Below, in pieces: positions 3,757 to 33,957 of a stretch of DNA of 64,000 nucleotides (its first letter is position 1; each line of letters opens with the position of its first letter). This DNA comes from Escherichia virus TH38: sequence record MT446410.1. One strand, written 5' to 3'. Under the pieces are notes generated by a model. It was given only the letters and a program-made list of their open reading frames with translations. It was not told the DNA's origin and searched no databases. The translations under genes and the position numbers were made by a program.

Positions 3757-4146
3757 TTATTCCCTAGAGCTATTATCGAACACTAAATCACCACAATACA
3801 TAGGATTGGCATACCATTTTGGCACCCCTTCGCTCTTACTCTGAAAGTAAGTCCCACTGTACAGCGGAACATAATTCTTCTTAAGGGCACGTTTAGCTAG
3901 CCGCTCGCTTTCTCCAATGGCTTTCTTAGTCATCGGATTTTTATCACGAATCAGCTTTACATAACGTTTATAAGGTTTCTCCTGTTTTAATAGTACCGGA
4001 ATCCACTCAAACTGGTTCTTTTGTCTTATCACCTGTTCAGCGGTCAGTTTTCGTTGGGCCATTCTATTTATTACGGTATCCGCAACTAGGGCTTTACATG
4101 CGGTTGGCTGATTCCCTGCCTCATAATAAATAGTCAATGTCAACAT
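3757..4146 (-). CDS. Cell wall hydrolase, SleB/CwlJ-like (Hydrolase_2 domain)
   Basis: YYEAGNQP...ALVADTVINR...QKNQFEW motif pattern. Confidence 0.5.
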   Translation of the reverse strand: MLTLTIYYEAGNQPTACKALVADTVINRMAQRKLTAEQVIRQKNQFEWIPVLLKQEKPYKRYVKLIRDKNPMTKKAIGESERLAKRALKKNYVPLYSGTYFQSKSEGVPKWYANPMYCGDLVFDNSSRE

Positions 4147-4193
4147 TAGCTGTGCCGTTGTTATCAGAACTTGATACCTCCTGTTTTACGGGC

Positions 4194-4221
4194 ATAAAAA
4201 AGCCCCAGCCGTAGCCGGGGC
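4194..4221 (-). terminator. Rho-independent terminator (minus strand)
   Basis: Hairpin gccccggctacggctggggc followed by a T-run on the minus strand. Confidence 0.55.
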
Positions 4222-4284
4222 AAACCTGAAAGCAACGCATGACCGTTGCTATAAATACACTCGCAAATGCACTTACAGCAACGC

Positions 4285-4306
4285 AAAAAGCCGCTCAAAG
4301 GCGGCT
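4285..4306 (-). terminator. Rho-independent terminator (minus strand)
   Basis: Hairpin agccgcctttgagcggct plus T5 on the minus strand. Confidence 0.55.
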
Positions 4307-4362
4307 ATGCGGAAGCTTCAAATGGGGAGAGGGCATGACACTACAGAAAGAGCGTCATAGTA

Positions 4363-4545
4363 CTAAAAGAGAGGGGTGCTATTCCATAATGATTTCCTAT
4401 CCCTTTCTCTACTTCTAGATTCTATCTCCTTCTTTAGCAAATCGTTTTCTTCTTGCAAGGATGCTACCAGATGAACCAGAACATCAACTACTGCATCACC
4501 TTGCCGCATCTCTCTGACTTTATTTAGAATCTCTGAATAAATCAT
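4363..4545 (-). CDS. Hypothetical protein (60 aa)
   Basis: ORF; ATGA start/stop overlap with the upstream gene. Confidence 0.4.
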   Translation of the reverse strand: MIYSEILNKVREMRQGDAVVDVLVHLVASLQEENDLLKKEIESRSRERDRKSLWNSTPLF

Positions 4546-4985
4546 TTTACCCTCGCCTCTTTGATGGGGTCGATGTATTTCTCAACGCCCCACTTGTGTT
4601 TACTATCTGCGTAGAAAACATCAGGTGCACATTGGCTTGTTTTAGGGAAGGCTTGCGGGTCTTTCGTGCTCCCCTTAAACTTCTGTTTACCTCGAGTGCG
4701 ACCATTACAGAAGATTTCTAACTTCTTCTCTTCTTCTGTTTTAGCGCCCCCGCTCTGTAACAAAGAACGTTTATGATCGGCTAATAATAACGCATCAGCA
4801 CGATGGACACGATGGCCTACGCGCTTAGGTATACTAGAAGGAACATGAGATTCAGCCTCAGCCTTTGCAGCACGACGTTTTAAACTGCGCTTGCTGACGT
4901 GATTGGTTGCCTTCGGCTTCTCTTTCTCCAGTTCAGAGATAGAAAAACAACGCCCGCCCTTCATGCTGATTTTAGATTTAGCCAC
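4542..4985 (-). CDS. Hypothetical basic protein (147 aa)
   Basis: ORF with a Lys/Arg-rich sequence. Confidence 0.45.
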   Translation of the reverse strand: MAKSKISMKGGRCFSISELEKEKPKATNHVSKRSLKRRAAKAEAESHVPSSIPKRVGHRVHRADALLLADHKRSLLQSGGAKTEEEKKLEIFCNGRTRGKQKFKGSTKDPQAFPKTSQCAPDVFYADSKHKWGVEKYIDPIKEARVK

Positions 4986-5054
4986 AATCTTATTCCTTCC
5001 AGTGATAAGTTATATCGGGCAAGCCCATCAAGTCGATAGGCTTGAACAAATAAC

Positions 5055-5264
5055 TTAATCAAGTAAACTAAACGATTTCCAACTGCGTAGCAGGATTGTA
5101 CCGTCATCCATAGCTACGCATAACTTTAACAGTTTCTTGTTAGCACTACTCACCGTTGTAATTCGTCCAGTTGTACATTTACCTTTGTTGCTATAAAGAT
5201 ATATAACACGACGGCCTAACAGACGAGAAGGTGCTTTCTTAAATTCTGAAATGTTAGTGATCAT
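5055..5264 (-). CDS. Hypothetical protein (69 aa)
   Basis: ORF; ATGA overlap with the upstream gene. Confidence 0.4.
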   Translation of the reverse strand: MITNISEFKKAPSRLLGRRVIYLYSNKGKCTTGRITTVSSANKKLLKLCVAMDDGTILLRSWKSFSLLD

Positions 5265-5485
5265 AATGCTTGATACCTTTGAATGTGTTCAATACGGGTG
5301 GATTGAGCAAATGACGCTTTAACAGCCATTTTCCTAACTTCTTCTTTACGCTGGTTAGTGTGTACAGTATCCCAATGATTGTTATCACGTTGGCGCTGTA
5401 ATATCTTACTGCATTTGCGATGGTTTCCCGTGCTGCGATGTTTCTCACAAATAGGACACTTGCCAAAATTATTACTGAATATCAT
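5261..5485 (-). CDS. Hypothetical small protein with CPIC...H...H putative zinc-binding motif
   Basis: ORF; coupled ATGA overlaps on both sides; preferred over the overlapping 5254-5466 frame. Confidence 0.4.
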   Translation of the reverse strand: MIFSNNFGKCPICEKHRSTGNHRKCSKILQRQRDNNHWDTVHTNQRKEEVRKMAVKASFAQSTRIEHIQRYQAL

Positions 5486-5709
5486 TTTCTCAATCCCAAC
5501 TTTCTTAAGATACGGCCTAACGTTGTTTCTTGCGTGATAATATAGCTGATCGCTTCACGTTCCAACGTTTCAATCTTCATTGGTGACGGATACCATTCAC
5601 CGGTAATAACACATTTACATTCAACGCCATACTTTTTAGATAGGCGGTAATGTTGACCATTGACAAGATTCCGATAAATCGTGGTATGTGTAATTAACAT
5701 GATCATCAC
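5482..5709 (-). CDS. Hypothetical protein (75 aa)
   Basis: ORF. Confidence 0.4.
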   Translation of the reverse strand: MMIMLITHTTIYRNLVNGQHYRLSKKYGVECKCVITGEWYPSPMKIETLEREAISYIITQETTLGRILRKLGLRK

Positions 5710-5753
5710 CTTTGATTAGATTCTTTGATTAATGCACTGAATCAATGCACTGA

Positions 5754-5787
5754 TAAAAGAAAAGGCGCTACCCGTTAAGATAGCGCC
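5754..5787 (-). terminator. Rho-independent terminator (minus strand)
   Basis: Hairpin ggcgctatcttaacgggtagcgcc plus T-rich tail on the minus strand. Confidence 0.55.
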
Positions 5788-5811
5788 TTATGTTTATTTA
5801 AATTGTCTTAC

Positions 5812-6720
5812 TTATGCCGCCTGACGTGCCGCCATAATTTCAGCCGCTTTACGCAATACCTCTTCCTCTTCTGCTTTCGCCGCTTGTTCGGTACGGGTAG
5901 CAACCGTTGAAGAGATACGACCGCGCAGACTCTCTAACTTCTCCTGCATAGCTGCAACAGTCTTTTCCATTTCATCAGCGTATGAATCGAGTGATTCTAA
6001 TTCCTTGCTTGATGCGTTCATCAGGTAGTTATCAGAGATCGCTACCGTTGAGGCCGTGACTTTCTTGATGAGTGAATCAAAAGATTTCTTAACCTTTCCT
6101 ACTTCTTCACTCAGGGCGATAGTGTTATCACTAGTTGCGCCGTTGCGCTCATCAGCCAGTAATTTGGCTTCAATACGGATTGCATTCAAGCGTTCAACCA
6201 AAGCGTAAATATCTTGGTTAAAGTCTTCCTTGTTTTTCGCCGGGATTTGCAGGTGTGCCGCCACATTGTCATTGCAACCCTTGTAAAAGTTAGGGTTATC
6301 GACTTCAATTTCACGGCCTAAAGCAAAGTTTTCGAAAGCGTTTGACCAGCGAGCGCGGTTTTGTTCCATTTTGGTTTTAATTTGCGCTTCTTTCGCGTCT
6401 TCTTTAGCTTTCGCCTCACCTTCCAGATTAATCCACTTTTTACGACCATTTGCCGCATCAGTGTTAAACTTGATAGGAGTTAAGAAAGTAATTGCAGTGG
6501 CAATCACATCCATATCACGAAAACGTTCAGTTAACAAGAAGTCAACCGCCGTCTGCAATACGTCCAGCTTTTTACCGTTACTGCGGAAGTGCTGTAAGTG
6601 CCCTAACAGGAAGTTAGAAACATCTTGTTTGATCGCCGCGTTATTGCTACGAATGTTGTTAGCCAGTGCATTAAAACCAGATTCGTTAACCAGAGTAAAA
6701 ACTTTAGCCATGATATTCAC
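5812..6720 (-). CDS. Hypothetical early protein (302 aa)
   Basis: Long ORF, first gene downstream of the promoter-rich AT region. Confidence 0.55.
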   Translation of the reverse strand: MNIMAKVFTLVNESGFNALANNIRSNNAAIKQDVSNFLLGHLQHFRSNGKKLDVLQTAVDFLLTERFRDMDVIATAITFLTPIKFNTDAANGRKKWINLEGEAKAKEDAKEAQIKTKMEQNRARWSNAFENFALGREIEVDNPNFYKGCNDNVAAHLQIPAKNKEDFNQDIYALVERLNAIRIEAKLLADERNGATSDNTIALSEEVGKVKKSFDSLIKKVTASTVAISDNYLMNASSKELESLDSYADEMEKTVAAMQEKLESLRGRISSTVATRTEQAAKAEEEEVLRKAAEIMAARQAA

Positions 6721-6780
6721 CTTTCAATTGTAAGGGCGCTATTGCCCCGCTCTCTATGAGCTTGTTTAAGTCACTATTAA

Positions 6781-6820
6781 CTTATCAATAACCACTCATT
6801 GTTAAGTAATTATTGATAAG
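6781..6820. promoter_or_regulatory. Perfect 11-bp inverted repeat CTTATCAATAA / TTATTGATAAG (18-bp spacer), with a third CTTATCA nearby; candidate operator
   Basis: Seen directly, about 60-100 bp upstream of the 5812-6720 gene start. Confidence 0.4.
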
Positions 6821-7627
6821 CGGGGCGGTCTTATCAGGAGTTAAACTTGCCGCCCCCTTATCCGTGATGTTTCATCTGGTATCTTTAATTAGTCGCTATA
6901 AACGAAGCCGACCTGATAGCGATGATCAATCATCACAATAAGGCAGTGCGTCCGACTCTAATTAGTTACATTTATTGTAACCGTCGGCAATATCGTCTAC
7001 TTTGCTTTCGCTCTCGCCTATCCTTTTGTATCAACTCTCAATCACTAGCCATCGCCCACAACGGGATGCTATTGTGAAAGAGTCATTGACCGTCTAATGT
7101 TCTGACGTTTTATATCTTTCGGCAAGTTTACTACATAAACTGACTATGTACGCCATCGATAGTGGCCTCAAATCATTCACATCGTAAACGTTCACACTAA
7201 ACCTTATTGTTAAATAGCAATTTGCCACTTTTTAACCACTCCCCGCCGCCCTCAATTGAGCGTTAATTCTTCGGGCTTGCCTACCCTGATTAACTTCTTT
7301 CACTGTAGCGCCTTGTTAGCGATGACCGCCGCTACCCTTAACCGTGGGCGATTAGCTTAAGTCTTTGCGTACACTCAATGAATCCGTTTATCAGTGGTGA
7401 CGTTTCCAGTAAGGGATTGTAAGATTGTTTACTCTGATAACTTAGAGAATCTTACACCGTTTTATCTGGTATGCTATCCGATGGTTATTATCATCTAGCA
7501 TATTCAACCGATATATGAGAATGTTTAAATTGTTAAAGAGCGGTAAATCTGTCAGTGTGCTTTCTCACACTACGCAACTGTTAGCCGTTGTTACGCTTTC
7601 CTTAAGCGATGATTTGCTTAAGTGTGC

Positions 7628-7656
7628 TCATTATGAATCATGTTGTTTTCGCTGTC
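7628..7656 (-). promoter_or_regulatory. Sigma70-consensus early promoter (TTGACA-17 bp-CATAAT), leftward
   Basis: Minus strand ttgacagcgaaaacaacatgattcataat; A/T-rich UP-like sequence upstream. Confidence 0.6.
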
Positions 7657-8118
7657 AACCACTTTTTTAATCTTTTTCGTCGTTCCCTTTATTGGGAGGA
7701 TATATCAATCAGCTATATTTGATTGAAGATTAAGCGGCAAGGCTTAAACTTATGATTCATATTTTTAAAGAGCGGTTACTACACTTTCAGCTTAACACAT
7801 CGTGTTAACTTGTCAAACTCTTTTTTATCATCTTCTTTTATTCCGTTCCCTTATCTCGCTTGAATCTATGCGAAAGGGCAAGATGATAAGTCTGATTTGT
7901 CTTTTAGGAATCTAGTGCGCTTTCAAGCATCGACCATTTGAAAGTATCGAACAAATGAGGCTTATTTTGTTGCTCATCGTCCGCCTGTTCACGTATGAAT
8001 CAGGAATCAATTCTAGTGGTCAACTAAGCGCCTTATAGTAATGACGTTCCCGCCACCTGTAAGACAAATCATATTTTTAAAGAGCGGGATTTTTTAAGTC
8101 ATCGCTGACTGAGTGCTT

Positions 8119-8147
8119 ATTATGAATCAGGCTGTTTTCGGTGTCAA
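8119..8147 (-). promoter_or_regulatory. Sigma70-consensus early promoter (TTGACA-17 bp-CATAAT), leftward
   Basis: Minus strand ttgacaccgaaaacagcctgattcataat; paralogous to the 7628-7656 promoter. Confidence 0.6.
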
Positions 8148-8557
8148 TACTCTTTTTAAGAATATTTTCACTTTCTAGCCTGATTTTTAAAGAGCGTAGC
8201 ACCTTCATTGTGCGTCTTACTGTCGGTATTCCTACCGCTCCCCGTTGAAGCCTTTTACCGTGATGCTAATCACCTATCGAGGAGTTTTTACTACTTGTTG
8301 TTACTTACTGCTTACTACGGGATTCATATTACTATAAAGGAAAATCATGTCAATACCCTTTTTTCAAATTATTTTTCATCTCACTGTTTTATAAAGGAAT
8401 TTATTTTATTGTCGGTAGGACACCGGAAGAAATCAGGAGGTAAAAGAGCGGGGGCGCGTGATACATCATAGAAAACGGCTTGTAAAGCAATAATAAGCGG
8501 CCTGAAACGCACTGTAGCGAGCTAAAAGGGAGTAAGCCATACAATCACCCTAGAAAT

Positions 8558-8580
8558 GAAAAAAGCCTCATAGCGAGGCT
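8558..8580 (-). terminator. Rho-independent terminator (minus strand)
   Basis: Hairpin agcctcgctatgaggct plus T6 on the minus strand. Confidence 0.6.
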
Positions 8581-8657
8581 TATAGGAAGGTTTTAAAGTA
8601 TCAGATAAATTATGACCATAGGCATGACCACGGCACAATAAAGCAGAAATAGTAACC

Positions 8658-9035
8658 CTATGGATTTACACATTGACCGTTACCGGATTCAATTTCATTC
8701 ATGGACTCATCAAAGAGCGTTAACGATGAGCGCATCAAGTGATCAATCATGACTTGTTTACCGGTTGTTTCATTTACCAGTTGAACAGTTTTATCATATG
8801 ATTGCACATGATCGAAATCATTTACATGCAAAATAATAACTTTAGGTGACTTTTTACCGGTTTCATAGTTTTCTACAAGATAAGTACATTGCAAGCCGTC
8901 AACCGTAGCAGGGGAGAATGTTGCAGCCTTAACGCTACCCATAGCCGATAGGAGCACACCCAGCAGGAGAACGACAAGGAAGAAGCCCACGAATACTTTT
9001 ACTACAAATTTGATAATACCCATGATAATAATCAC
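8658..9035 (-). CDS. Hypothetical membrane-anchored early protein
   Basis: ORF with an N-terminal hydrophobic segment. Confidence 0.45.
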   Translation of the reverse strand: MIIIMGIIKFVVKVFVGFFLVVLLLGVLLSAMGSVKAATFSPATVDGLQCTYLVENYETGKKSPKVIILHVNDFDHVQSYDKTVQLVNETTGKQVMIDHLMRSSLTLFDESMNEIESGNGQCVNP

Positions 9036-9127
9036 CTATAGTTAGAGAATATAAGAATAAAGCATATCAGCGACGAATAACGCCACTGTAACAACGAACA
9101 AGCAACGCCAAAAATAATCATGAATCA

Positions 9128-9382
9128 CTAGTTGCTATCCTCGCCAAAAAATGCTACGCTAACCTGTTCCACTTCTTCCAGCGACAGAAGAATCCCGCGT
9201 TGGGCTAAATACTTCCCAATAGTGAGATAATCCTGTACTAAATAGACCGCAGGAAAGCTAATAGTTTTTATTTCACCCTTAGTTAGAAAGGACAAATAAG
9301 TGTAGTCGATTGACTCATCAAAGGAGAGCGTAACGCCACCGTAATTGTGCGTGTCAATCAGTGCGATTGTTTCATTACCCAT
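9128..9382 (-). CDS. Hypothetical protein (start adjusted to internal ATG coupled to the upstream stop)
   Basis: GGAGGTGG RBS and ATG overlapping the stop of the 9375-9638 ORF. Confidence 0.4.
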   Translation of the reverse strand: MGNETIALIDTHNYGGVTLSFDESIDYTYLSFLTKGEIKTISFPAVYLVQDYLTIGKYLAQRGILLSLEEVEQVSVAFFGEDSN

Positions 9383-11725: not shown

Positions 11726-11743
11726 ATTCAGAGGAGAAGAATT

Positions 11744-24273: not shown

Positions 24274-26442
24274 ATGTCTAGAGAATTAATGCCCAAATCT
24301 GGCATAATGATGCCCCACGTAGTTGTGACCAGAGATGCGGCAGTTGTTGGTGTTTCTACAGTAGATGGTCAGGCAGGGGCTGTGAATCTGACTGATAAGT
24401 ACTTACAGAAAACCGATGCAGCTGCTACATACCAAACTAAAACAGAAGGTGCATCTAAGGACTACGTGTTAGATTCAATTCAACCTCTTATGTCTGGTGC
24501 TTTATTCAGAGCAGACCCTTGGGTTGTGAATGATACACCTTTCCGATCTACTGGTGCTAATGGTGTAGAGTCTGTGGATATGATGAAGGTTACTCCCGAT
24601 AACTCAATCAAGATTGGTAGCTATGCCTCTTCAGTTCAAGGTGTAGAGATTCATTCTGCTGGTCGTCTTCAAGTAGTAGACCAGAACGACTCTGGAGTAG
24701 AAACTAAATATCCGGTCTATTCTAAACGGTATCGTCCAGAGATTGAGGATTTGCCTTTTGCTGCAATTGGTTCTTATGTCAAAGATTCCAAAGGTCGGAC
24801 TATTGGTGTTACTCGTACAGGGATTAACTCTGATATCAAACAACTTACCCAGAAGGTAACCTTCACTCAACCCGTTACTGTTCCTGATGCAGTTGGAGAT
24901 TATGATGCGGTTACACTGAGACAGCTCCGAAATAGTGGTGGTGGTTCTGGTGGTCCTACCATGAGTGGTATTTCTAACTTTGGTATTGGTGATTTCCACT
25001 TACGTGATAGTCGAGCTTTCATCCCAGCTTTTGAGGTTGTGTCGGATGGGCAGCTTTTGAATCGTGCTGACTACCCAGATTTATGGGCTTATGCACAACT
25101 GCTATCCCCAATTGAAGACTCTCTTTGGTTGTCTAATATCTATCAGAGGGGTAGGTATTCTACCGGAAACGGTACAACAACTTTCCGTGTTCCTGACCGA
25201 AATGGCATCCAAGAGGGGTCACTGAGAGCTTTATATGGCCGTGGTGATGGTGGTAATTCTGCTGCAAACGGTCAAGTGTTTGATTCTGCTGCACCGAACA
25301 TCACATATGCGTCCCCTCACACAATGGTAACACTAGCCTCCGCTCCTGGGCAGGTGGCGACTGACGGGGCAATTCAATCAATCACCTCTACAGACGATGT
25401 GGCTCCAGTGGGGACTGGAGGTAAATACATATCCACAAACTTTGACGCATCGCGTTCCAGTCCTATTTATGGTCGCTCCACTGAGGAGATTCTGACCCGT
25501 AACTTTGTAGGTGTTTGGACTATTCGTGCGCATGGTGGTTTTACTGCTGCTAACACCTCTTGGTCAGTTATTAACAGTGATGCAAACCGTCCTGCTGGTG
25601 GAACTAGGGTAACTAGCGGTTCAGTTGTTTCTGAATATAAAATAGGTTCAGAAGTAGAAGCCTCTACTACGCTCCAAACTGATGCTTATATCGACGGAGC
25701 TTATTATGGGATTATCAATGTTTATAATAAAACCAAAGGAGTTACCAAGCAATTAGCTTTTGACGATTCTGGAACCCTGAACTCTGATAGATATGTTGCT
25801 CGGTCTAGAACATTGATGTCTTGGAGTGAAACAGGAAGTCGCAGAGGGACGTTTTCTATAGACAACCAAGGGGTTGGTGCTAACTACTCTTTTAACTCTA
25901 TACTGAGTGCTTCCCAAGCATCCCGAGGTGGATACAAAACTACTACCCATGTAGGGATGATTCACAATGATGCTGGATCTTTTGCTGATTCCTGTTGGCA
26001 TGTTTTGGGAGATGAAGACAACAAATATGGTTGTCGTTTAACTCTCCGACCAAACAGGAACGAGATTTACTACTACACTTGGCAGCCAAGTTCAACCGGA
26101 ACTTATACTCTTGCTATGAATCCTGTGTCAGATGAAAGGTTGAAACACAACATTCAAGATCTCTCGCCTGATGAAGCAATTCGTGCGATTAAAGGTTTGG
26201 ACTTCAAATCATTCGTGTACAACAATGACGAACAAGGAAGAACTCGTCGTGGTATTATCGCACAGCAAGCAGAAAAGGTAGAACCTCTTTATGTTAAGAC
26301 TCGTAAGTTCCATGACAACGACGGTGTAGAACAAGAACAGAAAGAGCTAGACTCAGCTCCAATGCTCCTCGACACCATGCAAGTTGTTCAAGACCTGTTG
26401 AAACGTATTGAAGTTCTAGAAGCTAAGTTAGCAGAGAAGTAA
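24274..26442 (+). CDS. Tail fiber/spike with C-terminal intramolecular chaperone (peptidase S74-like) domain
   Basis: C-terminal DERLKHNIQDLSPDEAIRAIKGLDFKSFVYNNDEQGRTRRGIIAQQAEKVEPLYV. Confidence 0.6.
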   Translation: MSRELMPKSGIMMPHVVVTRDAAVVGVSTVDGQAGAVNLTDKYLQKTDAAATYQTKTEGASKDYVLDSIQPLMSGALFRADPWVVNDTPFRSTGANGVESVDMMKVTPDNSIKIGSYASSVQGVEIHSAGRLQVVDQNDSGVETKYPVYSKRYRPEIEDLPFAAIGSYVKDSKGRTIGVTRTGINSDIKQLTQKVTFTQPVTVPDAVGDYDAVTLRQLRNSGGGSGGPTMSGISNFGIGDFHLRDSRAFIPAFEVVSDGQLLNRADYPDLWAYAQLLSPIEDSLWLSNIYQRGRYSTGNGTTTFRVPDRNGIQEGSLRALYGRGDGGNSAANGQVFDSAAPNITYASPHTMVTLASAPGQVATDGAIQSITSTDDVAPVGTGGKYISTNFDASRSSPIYGRSTEEILTRNFVGVWTIRAHGGFTAANTSWSVINSDANRPAGGTRVTSGSVVSEYKIGSEVEASTTLQTDAYIDGAYYGIINVYNKTKGVTKQLAFDDSGTLNSDRYVARSRTLMSWSETGSRRGTFSIDNQGVGANYSFNSILSASQASRGGYKTTTHVGMIHNDAGSFADSCWHVLGDEDNKYGCRLTLRPNRNEIYYYTWQPSSTGTYTLAMNPVSDERLKHNIQDLSPDEAIRAIKGLDFKSFVYNNDEQGRTRRGIIAQQAEKVEPLYVKTRKFHDNDGVEQEQKELDSAPMLLDTMQVVQDLLKRIEVLEAKLAEK

Positions 26443-26445
26443 GAT

Positions 26446-26466
26446 AAGCCCCTTCGGGGGCTTTAG
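26446..26466 (+). terminator. Rho-independent terminator (weak T-run)
   Basis: agcccccttcgggggct followed by tt. Confidence 0.45.
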
Positions 26467-26534
26467 TAGTAAGTACCCTTAGTAAGTAATGAAACTAATA
26501 TATCCCAAGAGGTTAATTTATAGGAGACACTCAA

Positions 26535-26753
26535 ATGAAAATGATGAAACAAGCTGTATATGGTTTAGTTTGTTTAGGTGCAGGAGTCGTGGTATCTACT
26601 GCAATCCCTGTAAGCGCAGTTCATCCATTAGTTACAGCACCTGCTCCAGTAGAGAAACTTAGTTCTCAATGTAAGCAGCGAACCATTCAAAATAATCTAG
26701 TTGTTATTTGTCCTGATGCTGAATCTAACGCTCTGAGAAAGATACTACCTTAA
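26535..26753 (+). CDS. Small membrane/secreted protein upstream of the lysozyme (holin candidate)
   Basis: 72 aa, one N-terminal hydrophobic helix, AGGAG RBS. Confidence 0.35.
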   Translation: MKMMKQAVYGLVCLGAGVVVSTAIPVSAVHPLVTAPAPVEKLSSQCKQRTIQNNLVVICPDAESNALRKILP

Positions 26754-26782
26754 TTTAAAGGGACCACAAAAGGAGGTTAGAA

Positions 26783-27274
26783 ATGGATAACGCCGCATTG
26801 CCACCTGTACAACTAAACTTAAGCCCAGCTGGAATGGAATTCATCATGAAGCATGAGGGTATGAGAACCAAGGCTTATAAAGATTCCGCAGGTATCTGGA
26901 CTATATGTGTAGGGGCTACGCGCGATATGAATGGTTATCCGGTTAGACAAGGATTAACGTATTCTATAGAGGATTGTCTAGCTCTGCTAGATAGAGACAC
27001 ACAAGACTCTGTTCGTGCTACTCAGAAGAACATAAAGGTTCCTTTACTAGTTCATGAGTTTGATGCACTCACTTCTTTCAACTTCAACGTTGGCAGTGGT
27101 GCTTTGAGCACATCTAAGTTAAGGAAAGTAATCAATGGAGATGTTAAGGGGGATGTTTATTCCGAATTTCTTCGTTGGGATAAAATAACGGTCAAGGGAG
27201 AGAAGCAGAGAAGTCAGGGTCTTCATAATAGAAGAGTTGCAGAAGCTAATCTTTACACCGAAGGTAAATATTAA
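26783..27274 (+). CDS. Endolysin, GH24 phage lysozyme
   Basis: E...D...T spacing in MKHEGMRTKAYKDSAGIWTICVGAT. Confidence 0.7.
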   Translation: MDNAALPPVQLNLSPAGMEFIMKHEGMRTKAYKDSAGIWTICVGATRDMNGYPVRQGLTYSIEDCLALLDRDTQDSVRATQKNIKVPLLVHEFDALTSFNFNVGSGALSTSKLRKVINGDVKGDVYSEFLRWDKITVKGEKQRSQGLHNRRVAEANLYTEGKY

Positions 27275-27286
27275 TGGAGGTGCCTT

Positions 27287-28090
27287 TTGGCTATCGAAAC
27301 TAATGCGGTAGTTATTACCGATTTAAACCCACTCTATCCTAGAGACAGGGATTACATCTACGAAGGGGCGGCTCAAATCCGCCTCATTAAACAAACACTA
27401 CAGAACACATTCCCCAATGTCACAGAGCCAGTTGATATTGATTCTGACACCTTTAAGATTATGTCAGAGAAGCTCAAGTTTACTGGTGATGCAATGGATG
27501 TTGGTGGTCTTATGATCAAGAACGTTACTCCGGGAACTGGTGACAAGGACGTTGTCACTAAAGGTCAGATGGAAGCGTTCATGAAGAACTGGATGGAGAA
27601 TAAGCTCTATCGAATTGGCTCTTACTACATCACTGAAGAAGATATTAACCCCGGTGATTCTATCTCCTTAGGGTTTGGTTCTTGGGCTAAAGTGACTGGT
27701 GTCATTATGGGTACTGGTGTAGTAAACCCTGATGGCTCTGTCCCTAATGCTCAGAGAGTTGAGTTCCAAGCAGGTGGTACTGGTGGTCGTGTCTTCAATA
27801 CCATTCGAACAGAGAACGTACCTTTGATGACAGTTAATGGCTCCAGCTTCTCCTTATCCAGTAACACCCACAGTCACAATATGGTATTTGGTCGTGGAGA
27901 TGCTAGTGGTCATAACAGCTCACCAAACTGGTATAGTCCGGGTGGTGGTTACAGTCAGAGAACTGATAACGACACGCATACTCATACAATCTCTGGTAGT
28001 GTAAGTCTTGGTCGTGATGATATCTCTCGTCAACCTATTAACACTTTGCCACCATTCAGAGCAGCTCACATTTGGAGACGTATTAGCTAA
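27287..28090 (+). CDS. Tail-associated structural protein (TTG start)
   Basis: 267 aa; GGAGGTG RBS; Gly/Ser/Thr-rich fiber-like sequence. Confidence 0.45.
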   Translation: MAIETNAVVITDLNPLYPRDRDYIYEGAAQIRLIKQTLQNTFPNVTEPVDIDSDTFKIMSEKLKFTGDAMDVGGLMIKNVTPGTGDKDVVTKGQMEAFMKNWMENKLYRIGSYYITEEDINPGDSISLGFGSWAKVTGVIMGTGVVNPDGSVPNAQRVEFQAGGTGGRVFNTIRTENVPLMTVNGSSFSLSSNTHSHNMVFGRGDASGHNSSPNWYSPGGGYSQRTDNDTHTHTISGSVSLGRDDISRQPINTLPPFRAAHIWRRIS

Positions 28091-28099
28091 GGAGGAATT

Positions 28100-31000
28100 A
28101 TGGCGCTGTATCCAATAAAGTCATTAGGTGCTGTAGGCGTTATCGCTGATCAGGCTCCGACAGACTTAGCTCCTAATGCTTTCTCTAATGCTATAAATGC
28201 TCGGTTTGTTGAGCAGAGAGTATTTAAGACGGGGGGCAATGCCCCTCTTTCTTATGTAGATGAAGATAAGGATTTAACCCCTCTGTCTTTCATTTCTATG
28301 CCTTTCGATTATTATAGCGCAGGTAATAGCTTTCTTGTTGTAGGTACGGATAAGAAGTTATATAAACTGACAGATGAAAGCTTGACTGATATTAGCCGTA
28401 AGGTTGCTACAGTCACTAAAAAGGCTTCTGCCTCAATTAAGATTTATCCGGTTGTTTCTCAGATTGTTCCTAAAGAATCAACCATCTCAATGAACTTCAA
28501 TCAGACCAAGAATCTAGAGGTTTCTCTTCTTCCTGCTGATGCCAACAATACTGATCTTGTTTGGGAGGTTAGTAACTCATCTTATGGAAGTATTACAGTA
28601 GACCCTAGTGACTCTAAACTTGCTACTCTAACATCTTTTGAGAAAGAGGGTAATCTTGTAGTAACTATCTCTACTGCCAATGAATCCGTAGTGGCTCAGA
28701 TTGCTGTTAATATCATAGATGGTGATTCAGGCATCTTCTTGAGTCAAGATACTGTTACAATTCGTAAGGGAGGGACTACTACTCTCACGGCTGTTACTGG
28801 CAAGACTCCTGTAACTTGGTCCAGCAGTAACGCTTCTATTGTATCCGTAACCCCTAACGCCAACTCTTTAACTGCTGTCATTACAGCGAATGGAGAAGGT
28901 AATGTAACAATCACTGCTGATAACGGGACTAAGACTGCTTCTTGTGAGATTGTTTCTATCCCTCAGATTGATAGTATCTCTTTAAGCCAGTCAGATGTTA
29001 CTGTGAGTAGAGGTTCTCAGTACATCTTAACTGCTACCCTTTCTCCTGCTAACGCCCCTAATCAAAATATTACTTGGACCTCTTCTAATCCAAATATTGC
29101 AACAGTATCAGGGACTAGTACACAAGGGACGATCAACGCTCTACTTGCTGGTTTTACTGAGATTACAGCTACCACTGAAGAAGGTAACAGAGTTGCTGTC
29201 TGTATTGTACGTGTGGATTTAGCTGGAAGGACAATGAGAACAAGTGCTATGGCATTTGCCGCTCCTGTGTCAGAGTCAGTAGAAACTCAAGAGGAAGAAG
29301 TAGTAACTCCTCCTGAAAGTGAAGAGACGGTTTATTTTGCTGAGCCTACATCCGGTATTGATACGTCAGGGATGTATGAAGGTAACAACTTCTACGACTA
29401 CTCTAACGTGAATGACATTGAAGGTTTTGCAAGAGCTTCTTTACTCGCAACTCCTTTGTCATCTGTCACCTTAGATATTGTCAGCGCTTCTCTTGATGTT
29501 GGTGAAGAGATTGTTGTTACAGCCACAGCTTCTCCGGAAGGTGAGTACTCCTATCAGTGGTCTGTTGATAAGACTGGTTATGTTTCTACAACCTCAGTTA
29601 CTGGTAAATCTATCAAACTGGTTGCTCTTCGTAAAGGAGAGATTAACGTAACTTGTACTGTTAGTCAGATGACTCAAAAAGATTACGATGCTTTTGATGA
29701 CTATCCTTGGTATCATGCTGTTATCTCTAACTGTGCAGTTGCTACAACTCACTATGAAACTCCTCAGGTAAAAGAATTCGAATCAGAATACTTTGTAGAT
29801 CTTCCGGGATGGGGTGAGCAAACAGTTGTGGATAATGATGGAAACCCTTCAGTCAAGAAGTTTAACTGGAAATGTGAGAGAGTGAGATCTTTTAACAACC
29901 GTCTTTTTGCTCTGAATATGAGAGAAGCTAATGCTTCTGGTGTTACCACTAACTATCCGCTTCGTCTTCGTTGGTCTAACTTTGCCAATGAGAACAAGGC
30001 TCCTACACTGTGGGATGACTTTGCCTATGATCGAGTTGTGTCTTCGGACTTAGCTTCTAACATCGTAGGTCAGACTCAGGCTCTAGAGAATGGGTATGCT
30101 GGTTATATTGATCTAGCAGATTCTAATGGTAGCTTGATTGATATCCTACCTCTTAAAGATTACTTGTTCGTTTATACAGAGTTTGAAACGTATATTGGTT
30201 CTCCGACTAATAACACGTACCAACCTCTAATGTTCAAGAAGCTCTTTAACGACTCTGGTATCCTTGCTCCTGAGTGCGTGGTTGAAGTAGAAGGTAGTCA
30301 TTTCGTAGTTACTCAGAATGATGTAATCTTGCATAATGGTGCAACCAAGAAGTCAATTGCATCTAACCGTGTCAAGAATATGCTGATTAACGAGGTGTGT
30401 CTGGTTAACCCTCTAGCAACTCGAGTGCACTTGCATCAGGATAAGAAAGAAGTTTGGGTTCTCTATGTAGGACCGGGGGAGCCAAAAGAAAGCTTCGCTT
30501 GTACTAAAGCTGCTGTATGGAACTACGAGTTTGATACTTGGTCTTTCCGTACTATACCATATGCTCAGTGTATTGGTCTGGTTGATCCTCCTGTTTTAGA
30601 AAGAGGTCCAATCTGGTCTGACTTCCAAGAAATCACTTGGGATGACCCATCTATTAAAGAACTCGTTTGGAGAAAGGATGCAACAAACTTTAGACAGAGG
30701 GTTACGATAGTAGGTTCATTCTTGAAGGGATTCTATCAAGTGGATGTAGGTGCTCTTGATTATTTCTATGACAGGCTAAATGATGTTGTTATAGAGAAGC
30801 CTCTGGAAATGAGGTTGGAGAGGACTGGTATAGATTTTGATAATGTGACTAATGAGTGGAATCAGAAGCATATTAACAGGTTCCGGCCTCAGACAACCGG
30901 TTCAGGTACTTACATATTTGAAGCTGGTGGTAGTCAATTCTCAAATGAATACGGACACCCACACACATCGAAGACTTATACAATTGGTGTTGACAGGCAT

Positions 31001-31117
31001 GTCTCGGTGAGACTGAACCATCCATACCTTTTCTATAATGTTATAGATAATGATGTTAACAGTAATGCTGCTATCAATGGTTTAACGATAGAGTTTGCTG
31101 TTGGCGGGCGGAGATAA
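28100..31117 (+). CDS. Large structural protein with tandem Ig-like (Big_2-type) domains
   Basis: 1005 aa with repeated Ig-like segments. Confidence 0.55.
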   Translation: MALYPIKSLGAVGVIADQAPTDLAPNAFSNAINARFVEQRVFKTGGNAPLSYVDEDKDLTPLSFISMPFDYYSAGNSFLVVGTDKKLYKLTDESLTDISRKVATVTKKASASIKIYPVVSQIVPKESTISMNFNQTKNLEVSLLPADANNTDLVWEVSNSSYGSITVDPSDSKLATLTSFEKEGNLVVTISTANESVVAQIAVNIIDGDSGIFLSQDTVTIRKGGTTTLTAVTGKTPVTWSSSNASIVSVTPNANSLTAVITANGEGNVTITADNGTKTASCEIVSIPQIDSISLSQSDVTVSRGSQYILTATLSPANAPNQNITWTSSNPNIATVSGTSTQGTINALLAGFTEITATTEEGNRVAVCIVRVDLAGRTMRTSAMAFAAPVSESVETQEEEVVTPPESEETVYFAEPTSGIDTSGMYEGNNFYDYSNVNDIEGFARASLLATPLSSVTLDIVSASLDVGEEIVVTATASPEGEYSYQWSVDKTGYVSTTSVTGKSIKLVALRKGEINVTCTVSQMTQKDYDAFDDYPWYHAVISNCAVATTHYETPQVKEFESEYFVDLPGWGEQTVVDNDGNPSVKKFNWKCERVRSFNNRLFALNMREANASGVTTNYPLRLRWSNFANENKAPTLWDDFAYDRVVSSDLASNIVGQTQALENGYAGYIDLADSNGSLIDILPLKDYLFVYTEFETYIGSPTNNTYQPLMFKKLFNDSGILAPECVVEVEGSHFVVTQNDVILHNGATKKSIASNRVKNMLINEVCLVNPLATRVHLHQDKKEVWVLYVGPGEPKESFACTKAAVWNYEFDTWSFRTIPYAQCIGLVDPPVLERGPIWSDFQEITWDDPSIKELVWRKDATNFRQRVTIVGSFLKGFYQVDVGALDYFYDRLNDVVIEKPLEMRLERTGIDFDNVTNEWNQKHINRFRPQTTGSGTYIFEAGGSQFSNEYGHPHTSKTYTIGVDRHVSVRLNHPYLFYNVIDNDVNSNAAINGLTIEFAVGGRR

Positions 31118-31121
31118 CAAC

Positions 31122-31144
31122 AAGGGGCTTCGTGCCCCTTTTAT
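31122..31144 (+). terminator. Rho-independent terminator
   Basis: aaggggcttcgtgcccctt followed by ttatt. Confidence 0.55.
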
Positions 31145-31160
31145 TGTTTTGGAGGAACTT

Positions 31161-32129
31161 ATGGGTGCAGGTGGTTTTCGTAAGAATACTGGTCGCAACA
31201 ACACCACACTCCCGTACAACGTTGGGTTTCTCAATAATGTACAGGACACAGAAACATATAACGTAGCCGTGTATGATGAATTACAAAAAGTTAGCACAGC
31301 TACTAACCAAATGTTCCAAGCTATAGATGAAATTCACGAAGAGATTGATGTTCGTATTAAAGCTCTTAATGCAATGAATCTACAATTTGATGAGCTTGAG
31401 AATAGAATTACTACAGAGATAGAAACAGCTATTGCAGATATCCAAACCCAGATGGGGAACCTGTCCACTGAGGACATTTGGGATAATTCTGTTCAACCCC
31501 CTGTGAAGCTAGAAAGCACTGTATCTGGTTTTAAGACCAGCATCGAAGGTAACACAACTAAAATTCAGACAGTAGAAGGTATTGTTAACGATCAAGGTCA
31601 AGAGATTGCTCTTGTTCAGACAGAACTACAAAATATCAACGGAAGCCTTTCTCAGTATATGAAACTCTCTGAGTATGAAGCTACGTGGGGTATTAACTCT
31701 ACAGTCAACGGAAGATATGCTGGGGTCAAGTTAACTAATAATGGTACAAACAGTCAATTCCAAGTAACAGCTAACAAATTTATTGTTGGTGATGGTAGCT
31801 CTGGGAATACTCCCTTCGTGTTTGAGGGTGGGCGAGCTAGGATGGAATTTGCTGATATAAAGAATGTCAATATCACAACAGCTCAGATTGCTAACGCTAG
31901 AATCCAATGGGCACAGATCGATAACGTATCCATCTCCAATGCTCAGATTCAGAACTTGTCAGCGGATAAGATTACTGCTGGCTCTATGTGGGGTTCTAAC
32001 TGGAGACTTACTGTTGGTGGGGACTTTGTTATGGGTGGCACAGGTGGGGCACAATTGTGGATGAATGGTAACAGAATAGACTTCTACGATGGAAGCGGTG
32101 CTCTGAGAATCAGGATAGGGAGTTGGTAA
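31161..32129 (+). CDS. Virion structural protein (start adjusted downstream of terminator, GGAGG RBS)
   Basis: ORF. Confidence 0.45.
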   Translation: MGAGGFRKNTGRNNTTLPYNVGFLNNVQDTETYNVAVYDELQKVSTATNQMFQAIDEIHEEIDVRIKALNAMNLQFDELENRITTEIETAIADIQTQMGNLSTEDIWDNSVQPPVKLESTVSGFKTSIEGNTTKIQTVEGIVNDQGQEIALVQTELQNINGSLSQYMKLSEYEATWGINSTVNGRYAGVKLTNNGTNSQFQVTANKFIVGDGSSGNTPFVFEGGRARMEFADIKNVNITTAQIANARIQWAQIDNVSISNAQIQNLSADKITAGSMWGSNWRLTVGGDFVMGGTGGAQLWMNGNRIDFYDGSGALRIRIGSW

Positions 32130-32130
32130 T

Positions 32131-33162
32131 ATGGCATACGGAATATGGACACAACCAGTAGGGCCGGGGCCAGCAACCCCCGCTCCCTTATTTATTGATA
32201 GCGGAAGCACTTTCCCTCAGTTCAAGAATAGTATAAGAGGGAGTTTTAACTTTAATGGGGCTGGGAGATCTTTCCCTATTAGTGGATGGGATGGCAGTGG
32301 TCAGATAGTTATTGTTCCTACCGGTTCTTTATGTTGGCAATGGGAAGTCCCTCCTAACCTAGTTCCTGATGTTTATTGTGTGAATAATATCTACGTAGAA
32401 AACAGTTCCTCTTTTAGAGTTACTCTGAATCAGAACCCCGGCAGTAACCCCTTATTTGACTGTGGGTTCAACGTATATCAAATATGGCCTAGAGCGGATA
32501 GGAATTACGGAATTACCTTTTCTAATACAGCAGACTACTTCTCGATATCTGATAGTGGGGTCGTCGGTCAATGTATTTGGGCTTGGCAGGGGACCATAAA
32601 CAATGCCCTTCAGATACCAAATATCGGTGGGTTCAATATGACCAATGCTGTTGTGTTTGCTAATTGGTCTGATGGAGGGATAGGACTATCTTATACCTCT
32701 GATGACAGGGTTATTCGTGTTTATCAGAACAGACCTTACATAAACGGCAACACTAATGAGGGTGGTTCTGTCTTTGCGAGGGTTGCCGTATTCTGTAACG
32801 GAGCTGGTGTTCCTGAGCATAATGGAGGTTTGAATATTTACTCTCCGGGTACCACGCAATGTGTCTTCTCTACTAACAGAACACCTTTCACTGTTGATAC
32901 TTTTATAGGCTCAGGAGGTGGTAACACAGGAATGGCATACCCCATGATACCTCTTACCTCTGGAATAGGTGCAATAAAAGGACAAGGCAGTGGATGGAGA
33001 TATCAGCAAATGAGATCTCACACCATGAGTGGTTCTACGATAGGAACTGGCTATGGAAGGTATCTGTTTCAGTGGGATCAAAATTACGACCTAGGAGCTG
33101 ACACTGTAGTTAATTTATCAGTTCCTGTAATAAATGCAGCTAAGGTTTTTGCTGGACTATAA
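32131..33162 (+). CDS. Virion structural protein (343 aa)
   Basis: ORF with RBS. Confidence 0.45.
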   Translation: MAYGIWTQPVGPGPATPAPLFIDSGSTFPQFKNSIRGSFNFNGAGRSFPISGWDGSGQIVIVPTGSLCWQWEVPPNLVPDVYCVNNIYVENSSSFRVTLNQNPGSNPLFDCGFNVYQIWPRADRNYGITFSNTADYFSISDSGVVGQCIWAWQGTINNALQIPNIGGFNMTNAVVFANWSDGGIGLSYTSDDRVIRVYQNRPYINGNTNEGGSVFARVAVFCNGAGVPEHNGGLNIYSPGTTQCVFSTNRTPFTVDTFIGSGGGNTGMAYPMIPLTSGIGAIKGQGSGWRYQQMRSHTMSGSTIGTGYGRYLFQWDQNYDLGADTVVNLSVPVINAAKVFAGL

Positions 33163-33174
33163 CAAGGAGATATT

Positions 33175-33957
33175 ATGGCAATTAAAATGGGTATTGAAGA
33201 ACTAGACCCAATGGTTCAACAGGCTTCAAAGAAGTATGGGATTCCTGCTGCTTTGATTCATGCTGTAATCCAAAGGGAGTCTAGTGGTCGTCCTACAGTG
33301 GCTTCTGGAACTGGTCCTGTAGGTTTAATGCAGATCAGTAAAGGGTTGGCTAAAGACTATGGTTATAAGCTGGAAGATAGACTTGACCCAGCAAAGAATA
33401 TCGATATGGGTGCTCGTTACATAAGAGATAACCTGAAAGCTTTCAATGGTGATGTTAAGAAGGCAATGGTAGGTTACTCAGAAGGAACCGGTGGTGCTAA
33501 ACAAATGTTCGCTGGTAAGAAAGGGTTTACTCCACAAGCTCTTGACTCCATGAACAATAAACACTTTCTTCCTTTCTACGGTGATGCAGCTTCTCAGATT
33601 GCTAACCCTATTGGAGCTTTGCAAGCTGTTCAACCAGTCAACCAATTTAGTCCTGATACTCTTGATAGAGAGAAGGCTGCTCAAGCTCCAACTCAGGCAG
33701 AAATTGCTGCTTCTAAGACTGGTGCTTTAGGTGGTAATCCAGTAGAGTTTTACTCTGATGAAGTGCAGGAAGGGGAAGATCAGAAGCCTCAGCAGAACTT
33801 TGGTAATGCAGTATTAGGAGTAGCTGCTATGCTTGCTGGTAAACCTCCTACTTCTCAAACAGTTCAGAGGGCAAGTGCACCACATGCAGCAGGTTCTCAG
33901 TACAGTCCACAAACACAAGCAGTGCTCAGGCGTTTGGCTAGCATTGGTATAAAGTAA
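33175..33957 (+). CDS. Virion-associated lytic transglycosylase (SLT domain) protein
   Basis: LIHAVIQRESSGRPTVASGTGPVGLMQI. Confidence 0.6.
   Translation: MAIKMGIEELDPMVQQASKKYGIPAALIHAVIQRESSGRPTVASGTGPVGLMQISKGLAKDYGYKLEDRLDPAKNIDMGARYIRDNLKAFNGDVKKAMVGYSEGTGGAKQMFAGKKGFTPQALDSMNNKHFLPFYGDAASQIANPIGALQAVQPVNQFSPDTLDREKAAQAPTQAEIAASKTGALGGNPVEFYSDEVQEGEDQKPQQNFGNAVLGVAAMLAGKPPTSQTVQRASAPHAAGSQYSPQTQAVLRRLASIGIK

Follow-up and report, generated by a model that had tools for sequence, protein, structure and literature searches.

The closest described relatives of the phage studied here are the Escherichia coli podophages SU10 and phiEco32. The SU10 papers report that virions contain gp20, a 'transglycosylase', which is gone from genome-release intermediates, likewise gp21-24; the entry stage, comprising the ejected SLT protein, wall cleavage and a channel across the periplasm, has been shown for this phage. 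The structural-protein table of SU10 marks gp20 'yes/yes', and the holin gp14 and lysin gp15 'no/no'. As regards the last step of lysis, phiEco32 is among the phages with overlapped spanins listed by Kongari et al. (2018).

The window (the whole analysed stretch of 64,000 nt from Escherichia virus TH38, accession no. MT446410.1) is, judged by its nucleotide sequence, the genome of a Kuravirus, i.e. an ordinary phiEco32/SU10-type E. coli podophage. It shares 95-97% DNA identity with SU10 (about 96%), phiEco32 and about 100 other records, and at the protein level its identity to SU10 is 93-99%. For the genes considered below, gene order is the same as in SU10 and phiEco32, and nothing of substance differs; the encoded proteins share 93% (putative holin; gp14), 97.5% (GH24 protein; gp15), 97.3% (SLT protein; gp20) and 99.2% (SleB-like protein; gp116) identity with their SU10 counterparts. 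However, one 798-nt gene of phiEco32 (phi32_119), located next to the SleB-like gene on its upstream side, is absent from the window. The three peptidoglycan-degrading ORFs reported in the first-pass annotation are all present, each scoring above the Pfam curated threshold (Table 1), and a scan of nine large tail/internal virion proteins and of an early-block protein (5812-6720, minus strand) revealed no additional peptidoglycan-hydrolase domain. The set, in which a lysozyme for lysis is combined with a wall-cutting ejection protein packaged in the virion and a small SleB-like hydrolase, is already known from published relatives. The best explanation, which we consider moderately probable, is a three-stage scheme, in which the SLT protein acts at entry, the GH24 enzyme at exit, and the SleB-like protein as an accessory, holin-dependent endolysin.

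Table 1. Wall-degrading enzymes, associated genes and predicted expression signals in the window.
Feature	Position	Strand	Evidence
SleB/CwlJ-family (Hydrolase_2) hydrolase, catalytic domain only, 129 aa from first ATG	3757-4146	-	PF07486 Hydrolase_2 (E=1.7e-7, 32.2 bits vs cut-off 27), phrog_12974 (3.4e-89)
Probable N-terminal extension of SleB-like gene, non-AUG start	4147-4170	-	conserved codons, Shine-Dalgarno
Two terminator-like hairpins, immediately upstream of SleB-like gene	4221-4202, 4306-4289	-	consensus scan
Near-consensus sigma-70 promoter-like sites	8353-8326, 8147-8119, 7658-7630	-	scan, 10-11/12 matches
Putative holin, 72 aa	26535-26753	+	phrog_11161 'holin' (2.3e-48)
GH24 (T4/P22-type) soluble endolysin, 163 aa	26783-27274	+	PF00959 Phage_lysozyme (E=3.7e-32, 111.7 bits), phrog_7 endolysin
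SLT-domain ejection (internal virion) protein, 260 aa	33175-33957	+	PF01464 SLT (E=4.5e-24, 84.7 bits), phrog_12507, phrog_342
Four further ejection proteins, homologues of SU10 gp21-24	33977-35029, 35042-36010, 36024-37673, 37696-42162	+	PHROG matches, SU10 proteomics
Overlapped two-component spanin	46232-46751	-	lipobox scan, phrog_1152 'Rz-like spanin' (1.6e-36)
i-spanin	46377-46751	-	spanin pair
o-spanin, lipobox MSAC	46232-46492	-	spanin pair

The SLT domain occupies the N-terminal part of its protein (residues about 13-116), the C-terminal half being of low complexity, and its catalytic motif is intact (E35-S, with GLMQ at residue 50). The label of phrog_342, 'internal virion protein with endolysin domain', agrees with the role in ejection-associated wall penetration proposed in the first-pass annotation, which is supported by the presence of the homologous gp20 in SU10 virions and its loss on genome release. 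Virion proteomics, suggested there as a check, has in fact been published for the near-identical SU10: gp20 is packaged, but the holin and lysin are not. The four further ejection proteins, in which no Pfam hydrolase domain was found, are, by analogy with SU10, co-ejected with the SLT protein. The latter would be packaged in the head together with them and, on infection, leave through the nozzle; its local cleavage of glycan strands would enable the ejection-protein channel to cross the periplasm. A similar arrangement is found in T7 gp16, which also carries an SLT domain on a head-packaged protein ejected into the periplasm, and whose N-terminal domain matches the window protein (E=1e-8, residues 9-120). 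In T7, however, this domain is N-terminal in a channel-forming protein of 1318 aa, whereas in the window it resides on a small protein of its own, and other genes encode the large ejection proteins.

We infer the exit stage from protein domains, gene order and the lack of an export signal. The GH24 protein matches solved endolysin/lysozyme structures (down to E=1.2e-27) and retains the E25/D34/T40 triad with T4-lysozyme spacing, and a hydropathy scan of this product detected no signal, SAR or other hydrophobic segment. Its gene is located in the late rightward block, directly downstream of the holin-type gene. Its earlier interpretation as the endolysin is strengthened by this neighbour, by the missing export signal and by the non-virion status of SU10 gp14 and gp15, and the proposed division of labour between endolysin and ejection enzyme holds, mostly by virtue of the published SU10 work. 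The small membrane protein noticed upstream of the lysozyme gene is real. It has one N-terminal hydrophobic segment (Kyte-Doolittle 2.13 over 19 residues), followed by about 44 C-terminal residues that include two Cys, and was assigned to no Pfam family; we term it a putative holin on the basis of its position, this segment and its PHROG label. The N-terminus resembles a cleavable signal peptide (VSA|V), which counts against the holin assignment. Late in infection, the putative holin would permeabilise the inner membrane, so that the soluble GH24 muramidase could reach and degrade the sacculus, with disruption of the outer membrane left to the overlapped spanins.

This cassette resembles those of the GH24 endolysins T4 e and P22 gp19 in (i) the E-8-D-5-T triad of a soluble enzyme devoid of a secretion signal and (ii) the adjoining gene for a small membrane protein. 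It differs from these systems, with their canonical holin, in its location between tail-fibre genes, in the single hydrophobic segment of the putative holin, and in the position of the spanin genes, which lie on the opposite strand at a distance of 19 kb from the holin and endolysin genes.

By single-sequence score, the SleB-like call is the weakest of the three. Homologues of this protein include phi32_117 of phiEco32, gp116 of SU10 and gp123 of Paul. The single sequence gave no direct match to SleB, but a profile of 46 relatives matched the solved catalytic domains of SleB, a spore-cortex lytic enzyme of Bacillus like CwlJ (4F55 and 4FET), over the whole domain (E=1.6e-20). The AlphaFold2 model is confident (pLDDT 95); Foldseek searches with it retrieved SleB-type viral proteins from BFVD (TM 0.6-0.76) and did not retrieve SleB from the PDB. 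Residues E9 (YxEA motif) and R28 are invariant in the 46 aligned relatives, the hydrolase-family motifs NR and QF(S/E)W show little or no variation, and E9 aligns with the Glu of the YGES motif of SleB. The protein lacks the signal peptide and N-terminal peptidoglycan-binding domain of Bacillus SleB (no signal peptide or membrane segment was found in it; maximum Kyte-Doolittle 0.61 over 19 residues) and in this respect is similar to CwlJ, which consists of the catalytic domain only. The middle of the domain is helical and about 20 residues longer than in the Bacillus enzymes. SleB and CwlJ proper require muramic-delta-lactam. Since the E. coli host, unlike Bacillus, forms no spores and has no muramic-delta-lactam, activity on ordinary peptidoglycan is assumed here from the phage context only.

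Virtually all related records contain the gene (99 by DNA, 129 by tblastn), and it is under strong purifying selection (dN/dS 0.07-0.17, dS up to 0.86). It encodes the sole wall hydrolase common to Gordonclarkvirinae and the sister C3-podophage family Grimontviridae; in GAP52, Hydrolase_2 is accompanied by an M15_4 peptidase, and no GH24, holin homologue or SLT was found. Annotations vary among relatives ('hypothetical', 'cell wall hydrolase' or 'endolysin', the last in 7-11, GAP52, Privateer and others), and the role of the enzyme was fairly described as open in the first-pass annotation; we found no experimental work on this protein of these phages in the literature. Small Hydrolase_2 proteins whose genes lie outside the main lysis cassette occur in GAP52 (gp023), 7-11 and Privateer, as well as in T5-like AKFV33 (ORF81), Phapecoctavirus, Goslar and Erwinia phage Y2 ('endolysin'), and no experimental characterisation of such second hydrolases was found. 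SleB-type proteins of other phages of Gram-negative hosts are often encoded in the early region, alongside another endolysin; they are only 20-36% identical to the window protein, and some have an N-terminal extension of 25-60 residues that it lacks.

A non-AUG codon 21-24 nt before the ATG at 4146 is the probable start of the coding region, the candidates being CTG (4167-4165) and GTT (4170-4168), with a Shine-Dalgarno sequence (AGGAGG) at 4182-4177 and an in-frame stop codon at 4188-4186 (all minus strand). The eight codons concerned (GTT CTG ATA ACN ACN GCN CAG CTA) are kept in 8 genomes of 3 genera with synonymous third-position changes only, and in relatives with 58-74% identity the corresponding position, 4 nt after the Shine-Dalgarno sequence, is occupied by TTG or ATG. 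Gene callers predict products of 101, 128, 129 or 136 aa depending on the start, and in record PQ850613 the gene (Bas89_0111) is annotated from CTG. Terminators are annotated at the place of the two hairpins in phages Paul, SU7 and WFI101126. The sigma-70 promoter-like sites form a cluster and are the probable early promoters for the leftward block, to which the SleB-like gene belongs; the corresponding spacer of SU10 contains three sigma-70 promoters (SU10 paper), and no gp36-type AATGTATA motif was found between these sites and the gene. On timing of expression, another check suggested previously, the published evidence is at cluster level only: the gene cluster containing the homologue was shown to be early class in phiEco32. 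By mass spectrometry, the homologue was absent from the 34 proteins identified in a crude preparation of SU10, and it was not found in SU10 virions; the gel-band analysis covered major bands only and may therefore have overlooked a virion protein of low copy number.

Our best guess, for a stage of the scheme that we infer, is that the SleB-like protein serves as an accessory endolysin, present in the cytoplasm at a low level and dependent on the holin for access to the wall. It would be a non-virion protein transcribed from the early sigma-70 promoters only and probably made in small amounts, given read-through of the hairpins and the probable non-AUG start. Peptidoglycan would be accessible to it only after the membrane is breached, which makes this role the most likely one, and homology to SleB suggests that it would cleave glycan strands. 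Both C3-morphotype podophage families may have inherited this hydrolase, the main endolysin having been exchanged between them.

It is unlikely that the enzyme is instead the ancestral principal endolysin, with the holin-GH24 cassette a later add-on and GH24 accessory. The distribution of the hydrolase in the two families and the RefSeq label of its homologues ('endolysin') would fit such a history, as would the holin-GH24 pair, which appears insert-like between two tail-fibre genes, has a lower G+C content (0.398) than its flanks (0.44) and is missing in 7-11 and GAP52; yet GH24 is coupled directly to a holin-type gene in a late operon, Grimontviridae have a separate M15 endolysin, regarded by their authors as the lysis enzyme, and the non-AUG start and upstream hairpins suggest low abundance of the SleB-like product. 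We consider quite improbable another conserved function in host takeover, as a moonlighting regulator or on a non-sacculus substrate. T7 lysozyme (gp3.5), which binds T7 RNA polymerase, is the model for such a regulator. The location of the gene among early host-takeover genes, its low-expression signals, strong purifying selection in two families with different dedicated endolysins, and absence of the product from a crude SU10 proteome that included other early proteins are all compatible with this; on the other hand, the (nearly) invariant catalytic Glu, NR and QF(S/E)W suggest that enzymatic activity is what selection maintains, a protein of 129-136 aa shows no evident extra domain or surface, and there is no experimental hint of a partner.

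A low-copy virion enzyme aiding wall penetration at entry, beside the SLT protein, is very doubtful, as the homologue was undetected in both SU10 preparations, the gene lies in the early block far from morphogenesis genes, and the available part of the Privateer report, in which mass spectrometry verified ten virion proteins, does not name the SleB homologue among them. This possibility is suggested by SleB-type domains that other phages carry within very large, probably virion-borne proteins (e.g. a 1191-aa protein of Agrobacterium phage Atu_ph03) and by the GAP52 ejection proteins, which have no SLT domain, so that something else may cut the wall there. That the ORF is a decaying remnant without function is scarcely credible: the canonical start codon has been lost in three genera and gene callers disagree on the start, but the dN/dS and dS values given above, a frame intact in all records examined, a strong Shine-Dalgarno sequence kept at the right distance and a confidently predicted fold argue against decay. 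With respect to the accessory endolysin, production confined to the early phase, and seemingly at a low level, is unusual for an endolysin, and retention of the enzyme in two families, each with another endolysin, argues against simple redundancy.

The window belongs to one more Kuravirus and is, at the DNA level, 93-97% identical to ~100 deposited phages of the phiEco32/SU10 group, which comprises Kuravirus and related genera within the Gordonclarkvirinae. All three of its peptidoglycan-degrading enzymes already carry annotations in the public records of almost identical phages. Subtraction of ~65.9 kb from phiEco32 coordinates yields those of the window, with wrapping where the linear genome ends. 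The SleB-like protein is encoded in the leftward block, which the phiEco32 map shows at its right end. The rightward morphogenesis block houses the genes of the putative holin, the GH24 protein and the SLT protein, while the remainder of the window is a second leftward block, which contains replication genes and others related to them. The three ORFs described in the first-pass annotation were found where it had placed them, and each scores above the curated threshold of its Pfam family. The four proteins are nearly the same as their SU10 counterparts (identity of 93.1% for the holin, 97.5% for GH24, 97.3% for SLT and 99.2% for the SleB-like protein), and experiments performed with SU10 are therefore transferable. 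A domain scan that covered nine large proteins (tail and internal virion) and one early-block protein revealed no additional peptidoglycan hydrolase.

The SleB-like gene is named "cell wall hydrolase" in the records of phages Paul, XT18 and ShigP1, and the SU10 protein appears in BFVD as "Cell wall hydrolase SleB domain-containing protein". What is added here is modest (the SleB-type enzyme as the shared one, signals of low expression and a corrected start), and the consequence for genome annotation is small. The residual value lies in the third enzyme, whose role the first-pass annotation had left open; its conservation in two phage families and its low-expression signals sharpen that question.

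Features of the window related to peptidoglycan degradation, lysis and genome ejection
Feature	Position	Strand	Size	Characteristics	SU10 homologue
SleB-like protein	3757-4146	-	129 aa	PF07486 (Hydrolase_2), 32.2 bits (cut-off 27)	gp116
Tandem terminator-like hairpins (two)	4306-4289, 4221-4202	-		directly upstream of the SleB-like gene	
Putative holin	26535-26753		72 aa	single TMD; directly upstream of GH24; phrog_11161 "holin"	gp14
GH24 protein	26783-27274	+	163 aa	PF00959, 111.7 bits (cut-off 22.3), 124/125 model positions	gp15
SLT protein	33175-33957	+	260 aa	PF01464, 84.7 bits (cut-off 21.3)	gp20
Companion ejection proteins (four)	33977-42162				
o-spanin	46232-46492	-		overlapping, out of frame; lipobox MSAC	
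i-spanin	46377-46751	-		N-terminal TMD; phrog_1152 "Rz-like spanin"	
AATGTATA copies	3452, 20151, 37695, 44598, 47591, 47664, 54091, 58673			gp36 promoter core motif	

The GH24 protein matches solved structures of endolysins and lysozymes (best E=1.2e-27) and contains, within EGMRTKAYKDSAGIWT, the catalytic triad E25, D34 and T40 (Glu-8-Asp-5-Thr), with the spacing of E11/D20/T26 in T4. It has neither a signal peptide nor a SAR segment (maximum hydropathy 0.82 over 19 residues). From the triad and the lack of a hydrophobic segment, the protein is predicted to be a soluble, holin-dependent muramidase. The label "SAR-endolysin", applied in record MT129653, is unsupported.

The small membrane protein reported upstream of the lysozyme proved to be real. 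Its assignment as a holin is putative, the whole basis being its position, one hydrophobic segment and the family label; the protein matches no Pfam family. Its N-terminus fits a cleavable Sec signal peptide equally well (MKMMKQ, a hydrophobic core, then PVSA followed by VHP), and after cleavage between VSA and V a peptide of ~44 residues containing two Cys would remain in the periplasm. Two tail-fibre genes flank the holin-GH24 pair in Kuraviruses. The G+C content of the pair (26489-27274) is 0.398 vs 0.44 in these flanking genes, and the sister family lacks the pair; both features are consistent with a cassette acquired later by the Kuravirus lineage. A GC-rich palindromic hairpin (26446-26463) precedes the pair.

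The overlapping spanin genes belong to the middle-gene block, 19 kb from the holin and endolysin genes and on the opposite strand, so the lysis genes occupy at least two transcription units with different timing. This pair (46232-46751) agrees with the classification of phiEco32 among phages with overlapped spanins (Kongari et al.). The GH24 enzyme would reach the wall through holin-dependent release, and overlapped spanin action would complete the exit pathway. Two minus-strand ORFs that overlap out of frame (42748-43149 and 42528-42896) were also considered as spanins and rejected, since the region 42528-43149 contains no TMD or lipobox and is HNH-like in appearance; the ORF at 42748-43149, which contains paired Cys residues and a DHIEP motif, resembles an HNH endonuclease.

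Among solved structures, the SLT protein matches the N-terminal transglycosylase domain of T7 gp16 (E=1e-8) and cellular MltC, Slt70 and EmtA (E=1e-7 to 1e-4). The catalytic Glu-Ser motif (E35-S36) is kept and GLMQ occurs at residue 50, whereas the third motif reads GYSEG instead of the family AYNxG. Gp20-24 of SU10 are present in virions and missing from genome-release intermediates, in a study that named gp20 as the transglycosylase responsible for opening the wall to the ejection-protein channel (Siborova et al. 2022, PMC9509320); gp20-24 were also found in an earlier SU10 proteome. As SU10 is almost identical to the phage of the window, the SLT protein is likewise considered to be packaged and then ejected. 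The structural-protein table of SU10 lists the gp14 holin and gp15 lysin as "no/no" and gp20 as "yes/yes" (Siborova et al. 2022, PMC9509320). The virion proteomics that the first-pass annotation had named as a check is thus already published for SU10, with gp20 packaged and gp14/gp15 not, and the division it proposed between an endolysin and an ejection-associated enzyme is supported. Between the tail needle and SLT genes lies a non-structural gene within the virion block (32131-33162), encoding a DUF6453 protein ("membrane protein", SU10 gp19) reported to be absent from SU10 virions.

Membership of the third enzyme in the SleB family became clear from its relatives. An exhaustive profile search identified 168 of them (E<=1e-3), most being stand-alone proteins of 120-150 aa, and Hydrolase_2 was matched by all 46 that were aligned (best E 5.8e-25). 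Searches of PDB sequences with the single SleB-like sequence gave nothing meaningful, and a profile of nine close relatives did not reach SleB; a profile of the 46 relatives matched the SleB catalytic-domain structures 4F55 (E=1.6e-20) and 4FET (5.5e-20) over the whole domain. Two residues, E9 and R28, are invariant in the 46 relatives, and Q45, F46 and A84 are nearly so. E9 aligns with the first Glu of SleB YGESRGEP, the catalytic residue of SleB. The AlphaFold2 model (pLDDT 95, pTM 0.89) resembles SleB-annotated viral models in BFVD (Foldseek, TM 0.6-0.76). Against PDB, Foldseek returned chance-level matches only, with 4F55 and 4FET unlisted, which we regard as a search failure and not as counter-evidence on the fold, because BFVD gave SleB-type proteins.

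Whereas SleB possesses a signal peptide and an N-terminal peptidoglycan-binding domain, the phage protein (129-136 aa) has neither, and in being a catalytic domain alone it is more like CwlJ, which consists of the catalytic domain only. The host is E. coli, and the substrate must therefore differ from the muramic-delta-lactam of the spore cortex. A hydropathy scan detected neither a transmembrane nor a signal segment. For the hydrophobic N-terminus, including its upstream extension, a SAR or signal-anchor role was rejected (15 hydrophobic residues, Kyte-Doolittle 0.61 over 19); in the model, this hydrophobic stretch is predicted to form the first helix of the fold.

The gene appears to start upstream of the ATG at 4146, before which there is no Shine-Dalgarno sequence. 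A strong AGGAGG is located at 4182-4177 and is followed, 6 nt on, by GTT CTG ATA ACA ACG GCA CAG CTA, in frame with this ATG. All eight codons are kept in eight genomes that represent three genera; the differences are confined to third positions and are synonymous. In the genomes from Suseptimavirus and Nieuwekanaalvirus, CTT replaces the ATG and a stop codon directly precedes GTT. In relatives of 58-74% identity, TTG or ATG occupies the homologous position, 4 nt past the Shine-Dalgarno sequence, and the encoded proteins are 135-136 aa long. The gene most likely extends over 3757-4167 or 3757-4170, starting at CTG 4167 or GTT 4170, 6-9 nt after AGGAGG. Deposited starts vary (CTG, ATG, TTG or an internal Met), and the Bas89_0111 record already uses CTG. 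The observation is of practical use, as several records (SU7_108, EP335 ORF117, ECBP2_0114) start at the internal Met and cut the product to 101 aa, which removes the catalytic glutamate.

The only promoter-like sites able to feed the SleB-like gene are near-consensus sigma-70 sites at ~7.6-8.4 kb, and between them and the gene there is no AATGTATA, the core motif of promoters of the phage sigma factor gp36. Besides the tandem hairpins, a third hairpin with a 12-bp stem (5762-5789) lies farther upstream, and transcription from the early promoters would meet all three before the gene. At the place of the tandem pair, terminators are annotated in Paul, SU7 and WFI101126. The hairpins, together with the non-AUG start, point to low expression. 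The window contains 8 copies of the gp36 motif vs 2.8 expected. One of them (3459-3452, minus strand) closely follows the SleB-like gene on its downstream side and falls within the early block, for which no gp36 promoter is described in the literature that we found. In phiEco32, a 798-nt gene (phi32_119, 69718-70515; "tail protein" or "agglutinating adhesin") separates the SleB-like gene from the gp120 homologue; in the window, 4300-4545 lacks phi32_119 and carries a 60-aa ORF (4363-4545) instead. This spot looks like an indel hotspot, several relatives differing there (two-piece matches).

SleB-like homologues of 32-36% identity, which carry the label endolysin, were detected by tblastn in 7-11, GAP52, Privateer, CsaP_009, SE131 and A24, i.e. 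in the Grimontviridae, the sister family of podophages of the C3 morphotype. The GAP52 Hydrolase_2 protein (gp023, 61.7 bits) is encoded at a syntenic position in the leftward early block, and the middle block of this phage encodes a Peptidase_M15_4 endolysin (gp069). From the whole GAP52 genome, GH24 proteins, SLT domains and homologues of the 72-aa protein are all absent. This picture agrees with remarks in the SU10 and Privateer papers. By sequence comparison, the two C3-podophage families have a single wall hydrolase in common, the SleB-type enzyme, and differ in their "main" endolysin.

As to its role, we tentatively favour, at slightly less than even confidence, a low-abundance, cytoplasmic, holin-dependent accessory endolysin, because the active site is intact and the protein, which is absent from the virion, has no means of reaching the periplasm by itself; its step in the lytic mechanism is one that we infer. 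That the ORF is a remnant is scarcely credible: practically all related records contain it (99 by DNA, 129 by tblastn), and such a reading was rejected in view of strong purifying selection (dN/dS of 0.07-0.17 in comparisons between genera, where dS reaches 0.86). A low-copy virion enzyme is very improbable; a crude SU10 preparation in which 34 proteins were detected, several early and middle ones among them, did not yield the homologue. The label endolysin in the sister family and the presence of the enzyme in both families would suit a principal ancestral endolysin, with GH24 as the accessory enzyme. This is unlikely, and the stronger version, in which 7-11 and GAP52 would have the SleB-like gene as their ancestral and sole endolysin, is weakened by the M15_4 peptidase endolysin that GAP52 also has.

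The accessory-endolysin reading has its own difficulty: what redundancy alone chiefly leaves unexplained is the retention of the gene in two families, each of which has another endolysin. A non-lytic early function, possibly moonlighting in the way of T7 lysozyme, would be compatible with an early gene and is rather improbable; the temporal class of the block is taken from papers citing the phiEco32 transcription study. We also give little weight to a deliberately low-abundance early enzyme with an essential role other than end-point lysis, its amount being limited by terminator read-through and the CUG/GUU start. Such a role may be regulatory or concerned with host takeover, exerted in the cytoplasm in the T7 lysozyme manner, or may consist of a controlled early weakening of the wall, which would ready the cell for the very elongated heads of these phages or for explosive lysis.

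A second SleB-type hydrolase away from the lysis cassette has been reported in T5-like phages and Phapecoctavirus, so that such separate enzymes recur among virulent coliphages, including Kuravirus and its sister family; our literature search found no experimental study of small phage SleB-type hydrolases encoded outside the lysis cassette. In GAP52 (25891-28681), the SleB-like gene adjoins TerZ/TerD-like genes and a gene for a TerC-like membrane protein, and in two more distant Kuravirus-like contigs (L011 and L013) a TerB-domain gene is located ~2 kb downstream of it.
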